Virus record (IMG/VR): IMGVR_UViG_3300025030_000051
Coordinates: 48,829 to 112,828 of that record
DNA length: 64,000 nucleotides
Source of the DNA: a virus
Strand: one strand, 5' to 3'
The notes below the pieces were generated by a model. It was not told where the DNA came from, ran no database searches, and worked only from the letters and a program-made list of their open reading frames with translations. Numbering within the stretch: position 1 is the stretch's first letter; each line of letters begins with the position of its first letter. Position numbers and translations under genes: made by a program. Positions 39,896 to 49,637 of this stretch are shown piece by piece.

Positions 39896-40672
39896 TTAAT
39901 GTTTTTCCTGTACCGGGTGTTTCAATTCATAAGCAAACATTGTTTTTTCATCAATTTTTACTATTTCCCATGGTTTATACCATTTTATTTCATTATCAAT
40001 TTCTATTCCTATTTCATTATATTGTATATCTATTTTTGTGTTTTTACCAACACATTTTCCCATTCCGGGTGACCCAGCAATTATAAATAATTCACCGGTT
40101 TTCGAATCCCCAATACCACCTTCTGTTATTTCATTAATAATATCCCACGGAGTTGCTATAGTATTTCTTTTAGCTTTTTCAAGCATTTCATTTGGAGATT
40201 TTTCTAACAACATTAATCCTATATCTCTATCTTGACCTGCTCTTTCGGCCTCCCTAAATCTTATTTTAACAGCTTCATAATCTCCTTTTTTAATATCGTC
40301 AACAGAATTATAAACAGTTAATTTCCAGTTTTGATTAATACAAAATTCAATAAAGTTATCTTTAATATAAGATAAATCTTCAGCAGTTTTAAAGTCGTAC
40401 GATTCTCTTAATTTTTGTACAATGCTTTCTTTAAAGACATCATTCTTTTCACTTTCAATTTCTGCCTTGAATACTTCTAACGTAGGATTTAATTTGTATT
40501 TTTTGTAATATTCTTTGATTTTATTCACAATCCACTGACAAGCTTCAGAATCAAAAAATTCTGGTTTTAATATGTCTTCAGTTTTAATTAAAAATTTCAA
40601 ATCATATATAAGGCAGGTAACAACCTTAGATTGATAAACTTGTCCGAAGCGTGTTAAGTTATCTAATTGCAT
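39896..40672 (-). CDS. dnaB: Replicative helicase N-terminal fragment ending in a 52-aa IntN
   Basis: TPWDIINEITEGG, GEL, GSPGMGK|CVGKNT (Walker A split after Lys). Confidence 0.9.
   Translation of the reverse strand: MQLDNLTRFGQVYQSKVVTCLIYDLKFLIKTEDILKPEFFDSEACQWIVNKIKEYYKKYKLNPTLEVFKAEIESEKNDVFKESIVQKLRESYDFKTAEDLSYIKDNFIEFCINQNWKLTVYNSVDDIKKGDYEAVKIRFREAERAGQDRDIGLMLLEKSPNEMLEKAKRNTIATPWDIINEITEGGIGDSKTGELFIIAGSPGMGKCVGKNTKIDIQYNEIGIEIDNEIKWYKPWEIVKIDEKTMFAYELKHPVQEKH
39899..40054 (-). mobile_element. Atypical split intein N-fragment (DnaB), 52 aa
   Basis: Block A CVGKNTKI; no block B before the TAA. Confidence 0.85.
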
Positions 40673-41115
40673 GATTTGACAAAAAGTTTTGACTTTTCAA
40701 GTAATGAGAATTTTCTTGAAGGCTGTTTTTTATCTACAATCTTACAACCAAATGGATATTGCGGAAAACAAATAGAATTAAATCTATTTTTTCCTTTAAA
40801 TCTTGGAAACCCTGGTATCTGATGTTGTTTGATTCTTCTAAAGAAATTTTTATAGGCATTATCAACAGTTTTAAGTACATATTGTAAATTTTGAGCAAAT
40901 ATTTCTTTATATTCAGGATAAAATTCTTTAAACTCTGTAAGTTCTTTAGATTGATCATAATAATTAATAGATTTACTGTTTATAGATGATTTATATGAAT
41001 TTATTCTTTGTTCAAGACAAACGTTATAGAGATTTCTACAAAGTTCAAATTGATTGTTTAAAGTTTTTTGAATTGTTTTATTTGGGTAGATTCTATATTT
41101 GAAAGATTTTCTCAT
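40663..41115 (-). mobile_element. tnpB: IS200/IS605 TnpB remnant lacking the RuvC domain
   Basis: KYRIYPN, CRNLYN, AYKNFFRR, GFPRFK; ends at 150 aa. Confidence 0.8.
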
Positions 41116-41164: not shown

Positions 41165-42223
41165 TTAACTCTCTTTTGCAAATTTATTTAAAATAGAAAA
41201 ATTTGTTGTAATCCATTCATTAATATTCTTAAAAGAATTCCAAATTTTATCGTGTTTGATCAGTTCATAAATATGTATAAGATTTATTTCTGTAATTTTT
41301 TTATTAAATAGTTCAGTAATCTTTAATACGGAAGACTTAGGAATATTGTCATTAGAAAGCTTCATAAGCTTATAATTCAAAATATATTGGTTTATATTGT
41401 CTGATAGTAATCTGAATGCTCTGGCGTCATCTGTGTGATCGTGGGAGTAATCTAGAACGTTATCTACGGTGTATTGTTTGTCTTCATTTAAGAAACTAAA
41501 ATGCTTGTTTATATTCTTAATTCCTAATCCCTTTATTCCCGGTACATTATCACTTTTGTCACCAACCATAGATTTATATAAGGCAAAGTTATTTGGACTA
41601 ACGTTAAATCTTGTTAATACATTTTCTTTTGTGACAACTTCTTTTTTAATAGGATTCCAAACTTTTACTCTATCATCAATTAGCTGATAAAAATCTTTAT
41701 CTGAAGAGATGATAAATAATTCCTGTAGTTCTTTTTTATTTTTACATATATCTATTAAACAGCTTATTGAATCATCAGCTTCAATGCTATCTATACATAT
41801 AAAAGTTATAGGAAGATTTTTTAAATATTGAACAATACGCAATAATTGATATTGCATTTGTTTTCTTTCTTCTTCTTCATTTTCCCACTTATAAGCTCTG
41901 TTTAATCTTGTACCAGATCCACGGTTTTCTTTATAATCAGGAAATATTTTTTTTCTTCTTTTAGAAGAGTCTTTACCATCTAAAACAATAAAAATACGAG
42001 TGGGTCGTAATGCTCTAATAGAAACCCCCAAAGTATGAAGAAAACCGACTATTCCACCAACATGGCGTCCATCTTCATTTGTTGTAGGCATTACAACCCA
42101 AATTCGTATGAAATTATTTAAACAGTCAACAATTAAAATTCTAGAATTTAAAGTTAAATCTTTTTCTTCTTTATGTTCTTTTTCTATTATTTTAAGAAGT
42201 TCTTCAAATTTTTCATTCATCAA
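41165..42223 (-). CDS. 5'-3' exonuclease / T4 RNase H-like flap nuclease
   Basis: VDCLN, DG..R..YKENR, EADD, SSDKDF, GDKSDNVPGIKGLG. Confidence 0.92.
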   Translation of the reverse strand: MMNEKFEELLKIIEKEHKEEKDLTLNSRILIVDCLNNFIRIWVVMPTTNEDGRHVGGIVGFLHTLGVSIRALRPTRIFIVLDGKDSSKRRKKIFPDYKENRGSGTRLNRAYKWENEEEERKQMQYQLLRIVQYLKNLPITFICIDSIEADDSISCLIDICKNKKELQELFIISSDKDFYQLIDDRVKVWNPIKKEVVTKENVLTRFNVSPNNFALYKSMVGDKSDNVPGIKGLGIKNINKHFSFLNEDKQYTVDNVLDYSHDHTDDARAFRLLSDNINQYILNYKLMKLSNDNIPKSSVLKITELFNKKITEINLIHIYELIKHDKIWNSFKNINEWITTNFSILNKFAKES

Positions 42224-43527
42224 TCTTCTACTGTTTCGTCAATTTCTATTTTAGATTTATCTATATTTTCAGAATTTCTGTCTACGTATTTCATAATGAT
42301 TTTATCTGCAAGATTATCATACAACAGCTGTTTCTTTTGTGGATTATTAATTATTAATTCTTCGAAATTTGGGTTTTGAAATCTTGTCATTTCTAAATCG
42401 TTTTCTATCATATACCACCCTTTTACTTCTTTAAATTTATTATCTTTATTTTCTGACTTAGTTTCATCTTCTAATTTTTTGGCTTTAATAATAGAACCAT
42501 ATTTTTTTCCTGTTTCAAACCAAGTTGTAGAATTATCTAACCCTCTATCAAAATAAACATCATAATCACAAGATCTAAAAGATGGACCTAATTTACTTTT
42601 TATAACTTTACAGTTACCTCTAATACCAATTATATCAGTGCCACTTTTTAGTTTGCTTATATTTTTTAATCTCAATCTTAATGATGCATGAAATTGTATT
42701 GCCTTTCCGCCTGATGTTGTATACGGATCTCCAAATGTTACTCCAATATTTGATCTTAATTGATTTGTAAAAATTAAAGCTATTTTATGATTAGCTATTA
42801 CTTTACCAATTTTCCTCATAGCTTGTGATAATATTGTTGCCTTTTGAGTAGCAAACCCTTGTTTATCATATGTTCCCTCATCTTCAACTTTATTTGTTGC
42901 ACCCATAATAGAGTCAAGAGCAATGGTAACTAATCTATCACTGTTTGCTTTTCTAACACTCTCAATAATGTTTTCTATAGTCTGGAATGCGTCTTCTATA
43001 ACTGGTATTGGAGCATAAATCATTTTACCTAAATCTAATCCTATTGCTTTCATAAATTCTCTATCAGCAGAATGTTCAGTATCTATTAATACAGGAACTC
43101 CATTCTTTTTTTGAGTTTCTAATAATATATGATGAACTAATAAAGACTTGGCTGTGTTATGATTCAACATTCCATTTCCAAAATAACATTGATCATCATA
43201 ATTTTTTTCATCTATTACTATATCTACAATTTTATATTTTCCAATATAATTTACTGCTTTTACTAAATGATAATTATCGTCATCACATAATATTTTAGTT
43301 TCATTTGGTATCAATTCGAGTGTTTTTACCCACCCAGAATTAGTAAAAAATTGATGTTTTTTTGCTACATTTTGTTTATAGTTATTTTTTAATATAACTT
43401 GCCAAGTATCTAATAATCCTTTTTCAATGTATTTTTTTATATATACGTATTCTCCATTTTTTGATTTAACTTTTATTTTTTTATTTTCTTCAAGTAATTT
43501 TTTTATTTCTTTAATTTCTACTTGCAT
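42220..43527 (-). CDS. recA: RecA/UvsX C-terminal fragment preceded by a 124-aa IntC
   Basis: IVDIVI..YFGNGMLNHN|TAKS; IDTE, LDS, NQLR, TSGGKA, KSK. Confidence 0.9.
   Translation of the reverse strand: MQVEIKEIKKLLEENKKIKVKSKNGEYVYIKKYIEKGLLDTWQVILKNNYKQNVAKKHQFFTNSGWVKTLELIPNETKILCDDDNYHLVKAVNYIGKYKIVDIVIDEKNYDDQCYFGNGMLNHNTAKSLLVHHILLETQKKNGVPVLIDTEHSADREFMKAIGLDLGKMIYAPIPVIEDAFQTIENIIESVRKANSDRLVTIALDSIMGATNKVEDEGTYDKQGFATQKATILSQAMRKIGKVIANHKIALIFTNQLRSNIGVTFGDPYTTSGGKAIQFHASLRLRLKNISKLKSGTDIIGIRGNCKVIKSKLGPSFRSCDYDVYFDRGLDNSTTWFETGKKYGSIIKAKKLEDETKSENKDNKFKEVKGWYMIENDLEMTRFQNPNFEELIINNPQKKQLLYDNLADKIIMKYVDRNSENIDKSKIEIDETVED
43156..43527 (-). mobile_element. Atypical split intein C-fragment (RecA), 124 aa
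   Basis: VAKKHQF (block B His), IVDIVI (F), HN then Thr+1. Confidence 0.85.
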
Positions 43528-44732
43528 AATTTTAATAATCTTTCTTTCTGTTTTGAATTTAATATAATTAAATTATTTTTTATTAAATTTAGAATTTTAT
43601 TTTTATTTAAAATATTTTTTATATCATAAGTTTCTTCTGTTATATAATTACATTTTAAATTAAATTTGTTACAATATTCTTTTAATGCATAAAATTTAAG
43701 TTTATTTAAAGATAAATTGATTAATACTTTGGGTTTGATTTCATATATATTGTTTTCTATAATAATGTCTGGATTATATGTTTTTTTTGTGTTTTTATAT
43801 TTAAAGCTTATTCTATGTTTAGATAATGAAAAATTTATATTATTTTCTATTAGATAAATAAAAATTGATAATTCTAAAGAACTTCTAAATAAAATTTTTT
43901 TACCATTATTAATTAAATGACCAAATATTCCTCTACCTGATAAATATGATGGAGATCTTCCATACATTGAAGTTCTTTTTGTTTTTCCATATAATTTTTT
44001 AAGATGTATATAGTTATGAAATTGATTTATATTTTTTAATTTTAATTTAATGTCTTTAGCAAAATCATTATTCTTTAATCCATCTATATATATCCCTTTA
44101 GCATCATTACTTAATTCTGGTAAAGCATTTTTTCTATCTAAAGCATTTTGATGTAATCTTTGTGCATTTTTTTTAAATTGATTTTTAGCTTTTATAGCAT
44201 TTAATATTTTACCATTATTTTTTGCATTTTCAAAAAAATTATAAAATTTTAAATAATTAGTTATAGGAATTGGACCAATTTTTGTTATTTTGCATATATC
44301 AGTTATAGACTTTCCGTTTTTTATTTCTTCTCTAATCAGTTCTCCAAAATTTTTATTAATATTGTTGAATCTTTTTATTCTTTTTAATTTTTGATATTTT
44401 TTTAATTTTATAGATTTATTTCTTTTGTTTGTACCATTTAATTTGTTCTCTAATTTAAGTTTTGTTTCATCTTTGGATATTTTAAATCTTTTTTTTAGTG
44501 TTTTTTCATATATATTATAAAAATTATATTCTTTGACTGTTTGTAAAATTATTCTTTCATTTTTTATATTAAAAATTTTTGCTATTTCAAATCTATTTTT
44601 TCCTTCTATCAGTAAGTTTTTAATTTTATTCCAATTATCAAATTTAAATTTACAAATATGATAATGCGAATTATAATTATTTTTACTAATTATTTTATTA
44701 CACAATTCACATTTTATATAATTTACTATCAA
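43518..44732 (-). CDS. Free-standing TnsA-like PD-(D/E)xK endonuclease inside the fractured recA
   Basis: N-terminal CELC..H..C finger, HTH-like segments, FRSSLE, YNPDI, YEIKP; GGAG RBS. Confidence 0.75.
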   Translation of the reverse strand: MIVNYIKCELCNKIISKNNYNSHYHICKFKFDNWNKIKNLLIEGKNRFEIAKIFNIKNERIILQTVKEYNFYNIYEKTLKKRFKISKDETKLKLENKLNGTNKRNKSIKLKKYQKLKRIKRFNNINKNFGELIREEIKNGKSITDICKITKIGPIPITNYLKFYNFFENAKNNGKILNAIKAKNQFKKNAQRLHQNALDRKNALPELSNDAKGIYIDGLKNNDFAKDIKLKLKNINQFHNYIHLKKLYGKTKRTSMYGRSPSYLSGRGIFGHLINNGKKILFRSSLELSIFIYLIENNINFSLSKHRISFKYKNTKKTYNPDIIIENNIYEIKPKVLINLSLNKLKFYALKEYCNKFNLKCNYITEETYDIKNILNKNKILNLIKNNLIILNSKQKERLLKLCK

Positions 44733-44788
44733 AAAATTTCTCCATATACTTATTTTTATTATTATATAAATATATGGATTTTGAAATT

Positions 44789-45061
44789 TTATTCAATTAT
44801 TATATCAATAATTGTATCTTCAGAAACACAACTTTCTAGTCCGTTTATTTCTGTAATTCTTCCAACAGGAATTCCACCGTTTCTTCTATTTGATATTACC
44901 ATATCCATGATTGGGTCTCCAATCGAGACCCAATCTGTAATGTCTGATGGATTCCATTCTGGATTATCAAGAAAATATGCACTAAAAGGACTTTCAGAAG
45001 AATTTATAACATTATATACTGAAGAAATTAATTCATCATGAATTTCACTTTTTTTCTTCAT
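44789..45061 (-). CDS. recA: RecA/UvsX N-terminal fragment ending in a 13-aa IntN
   Basis: WVSIG..D..GGIPVGRITEINGLES|CVSEDTIIDIIIE-stop. Confidence 0.9.
   Translation of the reverse strand: MKKKSEIHDELISSVYNVINSSESPFSAYFLDNPEWNPSDITDWVSIGDPIMDMVISNRRNGGIPVGRITEINGLESCVSEDTIIDIIIE
44792..44830 (-). mobile_element. Ultra-short split intein N-fragment (RecA), 13 aa
   Basis: CVSEDTIIDIIIE is block A only, followed by TAA. Confidence 0.85.
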
Positions 45062-45063
45062 TT

Positions 45064-45840
45064 TTATTTCTTAGGAAATAATTTATCAAAAGCTGCAGAT
45101 GCTTTATCGACATCTTCATTTTTTACTTCTTCTTCATCATTACTATTATTTGAAATTTCTTTTTCTTCCTTACTATTTTTGTTCTTTAACCAATTTTCTA
45201 GAATATCTTTCAGTTCGTCATATTCCAATTCTTTATAGATATCATTGATATTTTTTTGTTCATCAAGATATTTTTTAATTAATTCTTCAGAGTCTGAAAG
45301 TGGACTGGTATTTCTTTTTGTTCTAATTGAAGTTTTACCAAAATTGTTTCCTGCCTCTTCTGGAGTTTGATAAGTTATTACTAAATCAGTTCCATTATTT
45401 ATATCAGAAATATCACCGTAATCTGGATCTGACATAATTTTTAGAATTTCTTCATAAGTAGTTTTACCAAATTGCCAAAATCTTATTCCCTCATCTTCCT
45501 CACTTCTTACTAAAACTGGAACAAATATTCTCATTTTGGCTCTTAATGTTCTGCTTAGTGCATAATCATTTTTATCTCCAGTTGCAGCTAGTTTATCAGC
45601 AAACTTTTCAAAGGGGTCTGGATTTCCAAAGGACTTTGGGGAAATATAATTTTTATTGTCTATACCATAGTGGAAAAATAATTCTATAAAAGGATACTCG
45701 GCGTGTTTATATGGAACTATTCTTACTGTGTGTTCTCCTGTAGGCTTCCACATCCCAGAAGTTCTCTGAGATGAATCTTGTAACCCTTTGAGTGTTTTTC
45801 GAACTTTATCTAAAAGTTCTTTGTGAGATCTTGTCTTCAT
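45064..45840 (-). CDS. Single-stranded DNA-binding protein (gp32-like)
   Basis: WKP..VRIVP, PF..HY, WQFGK, GTDL, acidic tail ending FDKLF. Confidence 0.8.
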   Translation of the reverse strand: MKTRSHKELLDKVRKTLKGLQDSSQRTSGMWKPTGEHTVRIVPYKHAEYPFIELFFHYGIDNKNYISPKSFGNPDPFEKFADKLAATGDKNDYALSRTLRAKMRIFVPVLVRSEEDEGIRFWQFGKTTYEEILKIMSDPDYGDISDINNGTDLVITYQTPEEAGNNFGKTSIRTKRNTSPLSDSEELIKKYLDEQKNINDIYKELEYDELKDILENWLKNKNSKEEKEISNNSNDEEEVKNEDVDKASAAFDKLFPKK

Positions 45841-48002: not shown

Positions 48003-49637
48003 TTACTTCTTAAATTCTGTTAATTTATTTTCTAATAGTTTTTTTATTCCCATTAACTGTATTTCAGCATCATTCAATATATTTAAATTAGTATTAATAA
48101 TATTATCTGTATTTCCAGTAATTTTCCATTTAATGCTTAAATTTGAGTAAAATGGATCTGATTGAAATTTGTTAAACTGAGCTGTATCTACTTCTAATAT
48201 TTTAGATTTAGGATTGTTTACCTGTCTTAGAAAATATCTTGTAAAATATCCATTATTATAGTCAGCTTCTTTTGGTAAAGTCTTCTTTTCTTTAGCATAA
48301 TCGTTTGCGGGAGCATTAGTCAATTTTTTATAAATTTGAATAGTTATTACATTTTCTTTGCTTAATTTATTGATTATAATTTTACTTGGTAATAATTCTA
48401 TTATTCCGCTTGGCAGTGAAACGATAATTTCTTCTATAAATTCTTCTAATGTGAAGTCTGATATAAATAAAGTTTCTATACTAATGTCACTATCAATATT
48501 CACGTTTCTTATTAATCTATCAATTATATTTGTTGTAGCATTTAAATTTGCTAATATTTGTATTGAATCTGTTGTACGACATAAAACATAAGTATTTATT
48601 GAGGAACTTTCAACTAATTGAATAGTTTTTATTAATCTATCTATTTCTAAGTTTGTATTGACATTTAAATCAGCTGATATATTTACAAAATTTCCTTTTG
48701 TAATATTACAGGTTATCAATGTTGTGCCAGTAATATCACTGTTTAAATTTGTCTCTTTTATAAGAGTGTCAATTATTTTAGTGGTTGAATTTAAACTAGC
48801 TAATAATTCTATTGAATTTAATGTTTTACACGATATATAAGTGTTTGTTAATGAACTCTCAGTTAATTGAATTGTTTTTACTAACTTATCTATTTCTAGA
48901 CTTGTAGAAATATTTAAATTAGCAGATATGTCTATAGGATTTGCTGGATTTCCAGTCGTGATATTACATGTTATTAATGTAGTACCGTTAATACTACTCA
49001 CTGGAAGCGAATCAACAGTTAATTCTAAATTTAATAAAGTGTTTATAGAACTTGTTTCATATGTTATTATGTTTCGTATTAATCTATTGTTTATAAGTGT
49101 GTTTATTGATGAAGTAGAAACTAAATTAATTACTGAAGATGTTTCATATACTGCATAAATAGCATTTAAAAATTGTTGATTAGTTGATGTTGAAGTGCCC
49201 CATGGATTGACTAAAGAAGTATTATTTGTTGAATTATAATGATGTTCTTGTGTTGCATCAGCAGTAGTATCTATAGAAGATGCTGTAGTTGTATTATCAA
49301 TTTGTAATGCCAGCCAATAAGTAGTTCCAGAAACTATTGCAATATTTAACCCAGATGCTGTTTTCCATCCAGAAATTGTTCCTTTAGCAACATCACCGCT
49401 GGAACCAAGTAAGACATCTGGCTGATCACTTCCAGAATGGCTGTAGATTCCTATCTGAAAATTTGCTGCATCACTATTGTTCGACGCCCAATATCCCATT
49501 TGTGTAACTGAGCCATTAATAGAAGAAATTACACGAAATGCTCGTGAAGTATTATCTGTTACAATACCTGCACCAGCAGGATCAGCTGTTGGTGCTACAG
49601 ATACAAATCCACAATTTGTTCCTAATACTAATGCCAT
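48003..49637 (-). CDS. Structural protein: beta-sandwich N-terminus, internal repeats, conserved phage C-terminal domain
   Basis: GTTYWLA; 86-aa tandem repeat; DYNNGYFTRYF..W.ITG. Confidence 0.55.
   Translation of the reverse strand: MALVLGTNCGFVSVAPTADPAGAGIVTDNTSRAFRVISSINGSVTQMGYWASNNSDAANFQIGIYSHSGSDQPDVLLGSSGDVAKGTISGWKTASGLNIAIVSGTTYWLALQIDNTTTASSIDTTADATQEHHYNSTNNTSLVNPWGTSTSTNQQFLNAIYAVYETSSVINLVSTSSINTLINNRLIRNIITYETSSINTLLNLELTVDSLPVSSINGTTLITCNITTGNPANPIDISANLNISTSLEIDKLVKTIQLTESSLTNTYISCKTLNSIELLASLNSTTKIIDTLIKETNLNSDITGTTLITCNITKGNFVNISADLNVNTNLEIDRLIKTIQLVESSSINTYVLCRTTDSIQILANLNATTNIIDRLIRNVNIDSDISIETLFISDFTLEEFIEEIIVSLPSGIIELLPSKIIINKLSKENVITIQIYKKLTNAPANDYAKEKKTLPKEADYNNGYFTRYFLRQVNNPKSKILEVDTAQFNKFQSDPFYSNLSIKWKITGNTDNIINTNLNILNDAEIQLMGIKKLLENKLTEFKK
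48480..48986 (-). repeat. Two ~86-aa tandem coding repeats
   Basis: GTTLITCNIT..ISA.LN..LEID.L.KTIQL.ESS..NTY at 258-nt spacing. Confidence 0.75.

Follow-up and report, generated by a model that had tools for sequence, protein, structure and literature searches.

Layout of the fractured recA/uvsX gene

The window analysed in this study is a 64,000-nucleotide (nt) stretch, positions 48,829 to 112,828 of the IMG/VR virus record IMGVR_UViG_3300025030_000051, which is 112,828 bp long and estimated to be 63% complete. Inspection of the window revealed a recA/uvsX recombinase gene broken into three consecutive open reading frames (ORFs) on the minus strand, at 44789-45061, 43518-44732 and 42220-43527, which lie in three different frames and are all open and of full length. 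The first ORF, of 90 residues, encodes the N-terminal extein of the recombinase followed by a 13-residue N-terminal intein piece (IntN). The second encodes a free-standing endonuclease of 404 residues, and the third, of 435 residues, encodes a 124-residue C-terminal intein piece (IntC) leading into the C-terminal extein, which starts TAKSLL. The endonuclease gene lies, free-standing and in the same orientation, between the halves of a split intein within one host gene, and the same layout with a homologous nuclease was found in 11 IMG/VR loci. The arrangement is a fractured gene of the kind known from Dassa et al. 2009, and the split is of the known atypical S1 type.

The N-extein of 77 residues (44831-45061; this and all features below are on the minus strand) matches the UvsX-like recombinases of PHROG 97 with an E-value of 4.6e-8 and ends with GRITEINGLES, the last four residues being the first four of the Walker A loop. 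The nucleophile Cys1 comes directly after GLES and opens the IntN CVSEDTIIDIIIE (44792-44830), which is predicted to form the strands β1 and β2 and is closed by a TAA stop (44789-44791). The IntC (43156-43527) ends with NGMLNHN and holds the block B histidine His58, the block F aspartate Asp102 within the motif IVDI and the block G pair His123-Asn124. It is followed by the C-extein (42220-43155), 311 residues plus the stop, which opens with T-A-K-S and thereby supplies Thr+1 and the Lys-Ser of Walker A. The G+C content is 28-30% in the exteins, 21% in the IntC and 16.8% in the nuclease gene (43518-44732).

The pieces are connected by two short junctions. An RNA hairpin (44733-44790) extends from the IntN stop to the nuclease start, with its 3' arm over the GGAG ribosome-binding site, and carries the box CCATATATTTAT. 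The hairpin lies in the 56 nt that separate the IntN stop from the nuclease start, and the folded 121-nt stretch has a minimum free energy of -25.4 kcal/mol (z -3.97), a value that none of 200 shuffled sequences equalled. Hairpins at the same place, together with a CC..TATTTAT box, were also found in several relatives. The nuclease starts with a TTG codon 8-9 nt after GGAG, and the hairpin may sequester this ribosome-binding site and regulate the nuclease. The box is not enriched in the window, with four occurrences against 1.5 expected, a count matched by 6 of 100 shuffles, hence no promoter is claimed. A promoter/terminator scan found no terminator-like sites between the pieces, and its promoter-like matches are uninterpretable in DNA of 25% G+C. 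At the second junction, the nuclease gene and the IntC overlap by the 10 nt ATGCAAGTAG (43518-43527), so that the ATG of the IntC falls among the final codons of the nuclease. Overlaps of this type also occur in relatives, which suggests translational coupling of the IntC to the nuclease stop.

The fractured gene is flanked by a gp32-type single-stranded DNA-binding protein gene (45064-45840) and a flap endonuclease/RNase H gene (41165-42223), and it is the one RecA-family gene of the record. Beyond the latter gene, a 150-residue ORF (40663-41115, minus strand) matches only the N-terminal helix-turn-helix (HTH) of the IS605-family OrfB/TnpB proteins (PF12323, E 2.5e-11) and is probably a truncated TnpB remnant.

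A 13-residue IntN shared by a family of P-loop inteins

The host protein was assigned from its C-extein, whose RecA core scores 141.9 bits against the Pfam family RecA (PF00154, cut-off 27) and is closer to bacterial RecA (PDB 1ubc, E 2.5e-37) than to T4 UvsX (E 2.7e-6). Alignment of the C-extein with 1ubc places Lys127 on the P-loop lysine, and the intein insertion point falls between the residues matching Ser69 and Ser70 of E. coli RecA, within the Walker A loop. The uninterrupted homologue P0024, with flanks nearly identical to those of the window, reads GRITEINGLES-SGKSLLVGHIL across the junction. Therefore, ligation of the exteins would restore a normal P-loop. In the window allele the spliced P-loop would be GLES/TAKS, in which Ala, encoded by GCC and a single base from GGC, takes the place of the second Walker A glycine, and which departs from the canonical GxxxxGK[ST].

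The earlier note on this DNA, made from the letters alone, had described a 13-residue IntN at 44792-44830 followed by TAA, three ORFs in three frames, blocks B, F and G all inside the 124-residue IntC, an acidic IntN and a Lys-rich IntC start, and a spliced Walker A of the variant form GLESTAKS. Re-reading of the ORFs and the sequence found the IntN exactly as described; the ORF coordinates, the catalytic positions, the charges (-4 and +4) and the Ala for the second glycine agree with the rest of the description.

A search with the IntC region yielded 20 relatives besides the window protein, among which three groups stand out. The first, of about 425-429 residues, has the same IntC-plus-C-extein layout as the window protein; the second, of 519-535 residues, carries a contiguous intein; and the third, of about 286 residues, ends in a second short intein fragment. 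A single-sequence scan of IMG/VR gave no matches, and an alignment-based scan gave 39 loci, whose junctions were read by script. No relative exceeds 67% identity, and synonymous sites are saturated. The scan revealed 24 loci split at the same place, with an IntN of 13 residues in 19 and of 14 residues in 5, and 8 loci with contiguous mini-inteins of 136-146 residues at the same P-loop site. One contiguous intein (L019:3941-4357) contains an in-frame stop (YTNEG*LMLE), which points to decay of the allele or to an error in sequencing.

Comparison of the IntN peptides covered 24 split sequences, the window included and locus L013 left out. These hold 18 different peptides closed by TAA in 15 cases, TGA in 8 and TAG in one, with the consensus C-V-T-E-D-T-x-I-[DE]-V-I-I-E, in which Cys1, Val2, Asp5 and Thr6 are invariant. 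The same stop position in 24 independent IMG/VR loci, reached with 18 peptides and three stop codons, excludes chance. In addition, the 90-residue N-fragment was searched against 1.84 billion cluster representatives, yielding 229 matches at E ≤ 1e-3. Among the best 150 of these 229, 89 have an uninterrupted P-loop, 8 carry contiguous inteins and 26 are N-fragments with a short IntN, measuring 13 residues in 18, 14 in 6, 15 in one and 11 in one. Thirteen residues is thus the usual IntN length in this family and not an accident of the window contig. The 11-residue case, the 95-residue protein P0135, ends GDSG/CVTEDTLVEIE and may be a natural IntN of still smaller length, unless the ORF is truncated by the end of its contig.

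The length places the family below the natural IntNs described so far. Characterised natural IntNs range from 15 to 37 residues (PMC13014065), the record-short one being the 15-residue IntN of PolB16 OarG (PMC13014065, March 2026; PMC10189870), with VidaL at 16. The figure of about 15-16 residues for PolB16 and VidaL in the earlier note agrees with both papers (PMC13014065, PMC10189870), and its proposal that the window IntN might be the shorter one held as well, at 13 residues against a record of 15 (PMC13014065).

The residues needed for splicing are conserved throughout. His58, Asp102 and His123-Asn124 are invariant in family alignments of 14 and 27 sequences, and Cys1 is invariant across the 18 distinct IntN peptides. 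The +1 residue is Thr in the window; the relatives are divided about equally between Ser and Thr at this position. The IntC matches the Pfam domain Intein_splicing with an E-value of 1.2e-4, and a sequence-only search of the PDB aligned its residues 22-124 to residues 35-137 of the Spl DnaX mini-intein. The net charge of the window IntN is -4 and that of the first 25 IntC residues +4, with family ranges of -1 to -6 and 0 to +7, respectively. The Thr+1 and the pairing of an acidic IntN with a basic IntC start are therefore ordinary traits of this P-loop intein family and not peculiar to the window locus.

The fold was modelled with AlphaFold2 on a natural contiguous relative, L020, from the 27-row family alignment, and not on the two pieces of the window. 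The model of L020 has a mean predicted local distance difference test score (pLDDT) of 97.1 and a predicted template modelling (TM) score of 0.88, and in it strands span residues 7-12 and 15-20, followed by a helix over residues 23-29. Therefore, the boundary between residues 13 and 14 is the turn of the β2-β3 hairpin. The window IntN corresponds to residues 1-13 of this model, and as judged from the model the window split is at the S1 site as defined in PMC13014065, with the break after β2. The window IntC starts three residues after Met14 of L020, so that the residues of the hairpin turn are missing from the window intein entirely. A fold search of the PDB with the model gave 63 matches at E ≤ 1e-3 to the HINT horseshoe fold, and all of those listed are inteins or bacterial intein-like (BIL) HINT domains. 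The top Foldseek match is the VidaL intein (6vgv; E 8.4e-11, TM-scores 0.89/0.84, root-mean-square deviation (RMSD) 1.7 Å, 22% identity), which ranks above the Ssp DnaB, Mtu RecA and gp41-1 inteins. The sequence-only PDB search with the IntC missed VidaL, and the fold search recovered it.

A second RecA/UvsX site also carries an atypically split intein in many relatives (P0003, P0009, P0011, P0013, P0015 and P0018, of about 286 residues). There the IntC-plus-extein proteins end FGDKY/CVDPYTTKIKIRYKI followed by a stop, which corresponds to a 15-residue IntN. In P0014 (563 residues) the intein at this second site is contiguous (NHN/TVSGGKAL), and the window gene is uninterrupted there (FGDPYTTSGGKA).

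The nuclease and the proposed movement of its cassette

Homologous nuclease ORFs of 360-438 residues occupy the same position in the 11 loci mentioned above, where the gaps between the intein halves measure 1119-1365 nt. In the window, the protein consists of a helical N-terminal region of about 260 residues with HTH_7-type matches, which probably binds DNA, and a catalytic domain at residues ~266-390 (43563-43937). Alignment A2 of the family revealed invariant motifs RSSLE (Glu287), SKH, PDI (Asp322) and EIKP (Glu331 and Lys333), and a K...A...YC motif. By sequence, the order E...D...E-x-K is that of a classical PD-(D/E)xK nuclease. The first ~20 residues of the window protein (44673-44732) contain a Cys/His cluster (C-x2-C...H-x-H-x-C) that is missing from the other 11 members of alignment A2 and may be an added zinc-binding element.

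The AlphaFold2 model of the nuclease has an overall pLDDT of 81 and exceeds 90 over most of the nuclease domain. VIA comparison of the fold placed TnsA first, with a Z-score of 8.5 to 1t0f_B (RMSD 2.9 Å over 112 residues) and 8.4 to 1f1z_A (RMSD 3.2 Å over 122 residues), the next nuclease being I-Bth0305I with a Z-score of 5.1. Foldseek with the whole 404-residue model found TnsA weakly, at E 0.012. In the ESM Atlas the domain lies among viral clusters labelled TnsA-like N-terminal (TM 0.72-0.75), several of which carry NUMOD3 motifs, and PHROGs labels the family only as endonuclease. The family profile matches T7 endonuclease I (2pfj) with E 0.004, aligned on FRSGLE...TYTPDF; the nuclease sequence itself, compared with the PDB, gave noise except for a weak match to T7 endonuclease I. 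Among 12 family members, the Pfam domain Phage_endo_I (PF05367) was found in 9 (best E 7.9e-6) and TnsA-like_N (PF08722) in 7 (best E 6e-6). The window nuclease alone falls below the cut-offs, with 19.8 bits against 29.1 for Phage_endo_I and no match to TnsA-like_N. The earlier note had called the insert a TnsA-like PD-(D/E)xK nuclease. The TnsA-like fold is supported by the Z-score, by TnsA-like_N in 7 of 12 members and by the ESM Atlas clusters, but T7 endonuclease I matches equally by sequence (9 of 12), and the enzyme is here called TnsA/endonuclease-I-like. No second copy of this nuclease was found in the record, and our literature search found no description of this type as a homing endonuclease. 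Its nuclease activity and its target are predictions from the sequence.

The related loci preserve all stages of a fracture, namely contiguous inteins, split inteins with an intact nuclease, split inteins with a decaying nuclease and split inteins without one. Loci with gaps of 445-502 nt between the intein halves keep a partial nuclease ORF, and 8 loci with 77-306 nt between the halves are still split and hold no nuclease ORF. In several of these 8 (L023, L014, L004 and L022) the DNA for the C-terminal KNLEKLKRN of the nuclease is retained just before the IntC ATG. These 3' remnants in short-gap loci indicate that the nuclease decays by internal deletion and that the intein stays split, and therefore the split form is viable or tolerated on its own. 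A homing role for the nuclease is suggested by its position in the host gene, its low G+C content, its polymorphism between presence, decay and absence, and its patchy distribution on the intein tree.

On this tree, six contiguous forms are interleaved with split ones and at least three changes of state are forced, with supported branches joining L026 to L006 (100/100) and L020 to L005 plus L022 (100/98). The contiguous L020 reads IIE-M at the exact point where the split alleles read IIE-stop...ATG. Comparison of the contiguous L026 with its split sister L006 showed that 36 of 39 nt of the IntN-coding DNA are identical. The 99-nt left flank, IntN DNA included, is identical at 74 of 99 positions, and the first 90 nt past the break at 39 of 90. 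This pattern may mark a site recognised by the nuclease or a tract of recent co-conversion. Taking the sequences together, we conclude that the cassette has repeatedly entered, or left, at the boundary between codons 13 and 14 of the intein gene. With the cassette inside intein DNA and the two states interleaved on the tree, the nuclease would most likely cut intein alleles without a nuclease gene, and not only an intein-less recA.

An alternative that concerns mobility only is that the intein and the nuclease move as one unit, the nuclease cutting intein-less recA/uvsX at the P-loop codons and not contiguous inteins. The classical account of homing by intein-encoded nucleases, which also covers the fractured genes of Dassa et al. 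(PMC2677866), is of this form, and intein-less homologues with nearly identical flanks, such as P0024, do exist. However, the edges of the cassette lie inside the intein DNA at codons 13 and 14, contiguous and split forms are interleaved on the tree with at least three forced changes, and in L020 the residues IIE-M span the precise point of the break. The argument from the tree is weakened in that the same pattern could arise from a cassette that was lost precisely on several occasions. We therefore regard homing as a unit as a serious possibility, though not a favoured one.

Proposed mechanism of the fractured gene

Based on the locus, its relatives and the fold model, we propose the following course for the window gene. 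The sole RecA/UvsX of the record is interrupted in its ATP-binding loop by a VidaL-type mini-intein of 137 residues. A mobile cassette carrying the gene of a TnsA/endonuclease-I-like homing endonuclease would have entered the intein DNA at the codon boundary of the β2-β3 turn, giving a stop after intein residue 13 and, at its 3' end, an overlap with the start codon of the remaining intein. Expression would yield two polypeptides, the N-terminal part of RecA with the acidic 13-residue IntN, and the 124-residue IntC with its basic N-terminus joined to the C-terminal part of RecA. The IntN would dock as strands β1-β2 into the IntC and complete the HINT fold. Upon this association, Cys1, His58, Asp102, His123-Asn124 and Thr+1 would run standard class-1 trans-splicing, and the product would be an intact recombinase whose P-loop reads GLESTAKS. 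The association of the two pieces and their splicing are expected from the sequence and the model, and we consider it highly probable that the locus yields a spliced recombinase and is a working fractured gene.

Several observations weigh against this reading. Block B of the window reads AKKH and not TxxH, the Thr position being Ser, Thr or Ala among the relatives. No clear ribosome-binding site precedes the ATG of the IntC. As the record is incomplete, its missing part may hold a second recombinase gene. The internal stop of L019 shows that some alleles decay. In addition, the window has Ala at a P-loop position where all of the more than 30 relatives have Gly (GK[ST]), which could weaken the ATPase or stem from a sequencing error.

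The last of these points would suit a dead or dying gene, in which insertion of the nuclease had disabled the intein, and with it the recombinase, and the two halves are never joined. The change from Gly to Ala in Walker A is unique to the window allele among the intein-family relatives, and the L019 stop and the incompleteness of the record point in the same direction. However, T4 UvsX has Phe at the same position (GPSKSFKS), and one uninterrupted homologue reads GLEASAKS. With these two precedents, a residue other than Gly at this position would not necessarily abolish the enzyme, although it is still the main blemish of the window allele. Moreover, both halves and their catalytic residues are conserved over dozens of divergent loci that stop at one and the same position, the split outlasts the nuclease gene, and the three ORFs of the window are open and of full length. 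A dead gene is therefore very improbable. Association of the fragments without efficient splicing, non-covalently or with cleavage dominating since 13 residues bind too weakly, would recall the short PolB16 IntN, which splices slowly with up to 25% C-cleavage (PMC13014065). This reading is likewise very improbable, as mere association would not require Cys1, the last Asn and Ser/Thr+1 to be so strictly conserved, as ATP binding by a P-loop with an insertion in it needs covalent continuity, as VidaL, the closest structure, splices fast (PMC13014065), and as an engineered 11-residue IntN (M86) works (PMC13014065).

Beyond the working gene, we tentatively advance a joint proposal in two parts. 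The family may be the shortest natural class of IntN, usually 13 residues and maybe 11 in P0135, and perhaps as fast as VidaL. The nuclease may represent an undescribed homing family that targets the intein gene at the codons of the β2-β3 turn and has repeatedly split contiguous inteins.

A short IntN is wanted for protein semisynthesis, since it can be made chemically and adds little to the target. The 13-residue family comprises dozens of natural sequence variants carrying either Ser+1 or Thr+1, among which a fast and robust splicer might be sought. If the family proves as fast as VidaL, proteins could be labelled semisynthetically with a natural tag of smaller size. In practical terms this would be an incremental gain over VidaL (16 residues), PolB16 (15 residues) and M86 (11 residues), the last of which already provides an engineered IntN of smaller size.

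Comparison with known systems

The closest known system is VidaL, an intein from a Lake Vida metagenome. Similar to VidaL, the present family has a natural S1 split after β2 and Cys1, with a TM-score of 0.89 between VidaL and the family model. Both inteins interrupt the same P-loop position, with exteins ESG/SGK in VidaL (supplement of PMC10264447) and LES/TAK in the window. A register Y..KG.L in the IntC is also shared, although this match is weak (hhalign E 4.6e-4 over a 60-residue stretch). In contrast, the VidaL IntN has 16 residues (CLPKEAVVQIRLTKKG) and the window family stops three residues earlier, the sequence identity is about 22%, and VidaL has Ser+1 whereas the window has Thr+1. 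VidaL is an experimentally characterised laboratory tool (Burton et al. 2020, cited in PMC13014065) with a reported splicing half-life of about 1 min (PMC13014065), whereas the present family is known from sequences and a model. PolB16 OarG (PMC10189870) also has a natural atypical S1 split and a very short IntN within reach of peptide synthesis. It differs in its IntN of 15 residues, in being cysteine-less (Ser1), in its PolB polymerase host and in its slow splicing with C-cleavage side reactions. In Ssp DnaB M86, an 11-residue IntN was obtained (cited in PMC13014065) by a split in the same structural region, which shows that 11-13 residues can suffice; unlike the present natural family, M86 was engineered and evolved in the laboratory.

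The layout of the locus resembles the fractured phage genes of Dassa et al. 2009 (PMC2677866), in which N-extein plus IntN, a free-standing endonuclease and IntC plus C-extein lie on one strand with overlapping frames. Those loci share with the present family a hairpin in the 5' region of the nuclease, alleles without a nuclease (gp41-7) and hosts in phage DNA metabolism. They differ in their canonical split, with a long IntN and a short IntC, and in their GIY-YIG or Vsr-like nucleases, and RecA/UvsX is not among their 8 host enzymes.

The nuclease shares with TnsA (1f1z/1t0f) and T7 endonuclease I (2pfj/1m0d) the PD-(D/E)xK core and the motif order [RE]S.LE...PD...E.K. In contrast to both, its catalytic domain is fused to the HTH-type helical region and the gene would be a selfish insert in an intein gene. 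The protein also lacks the C-terminal domain and the transposon partners of TnsA, and there is no evidence for junction resolution. Homing endonucleases with restriction-enzyme folds are known, such as I-Bth0305I (Vsr-like, EDxHD) and I-Ssp6803I (PD-(D/E)xK) (PMC3239194, PMC2677866). I-Bth0305I resides in a phage recA gene and likewise joins an N-terminal DNA-binding region to a C-terminal catalytic domain. It is nevertheless distant, with a Z-score of only 5.1 and an EDxHD motif in place of the classical E/D/ExK of the window nuclease. Taken together, the intein is a relative of VidaL and of a known kind, and what sets it apart from these systems is the 13-residue IntN, the TnsA/endonuclease-I-like agent and the full series of contiguous, split and decayed forms.

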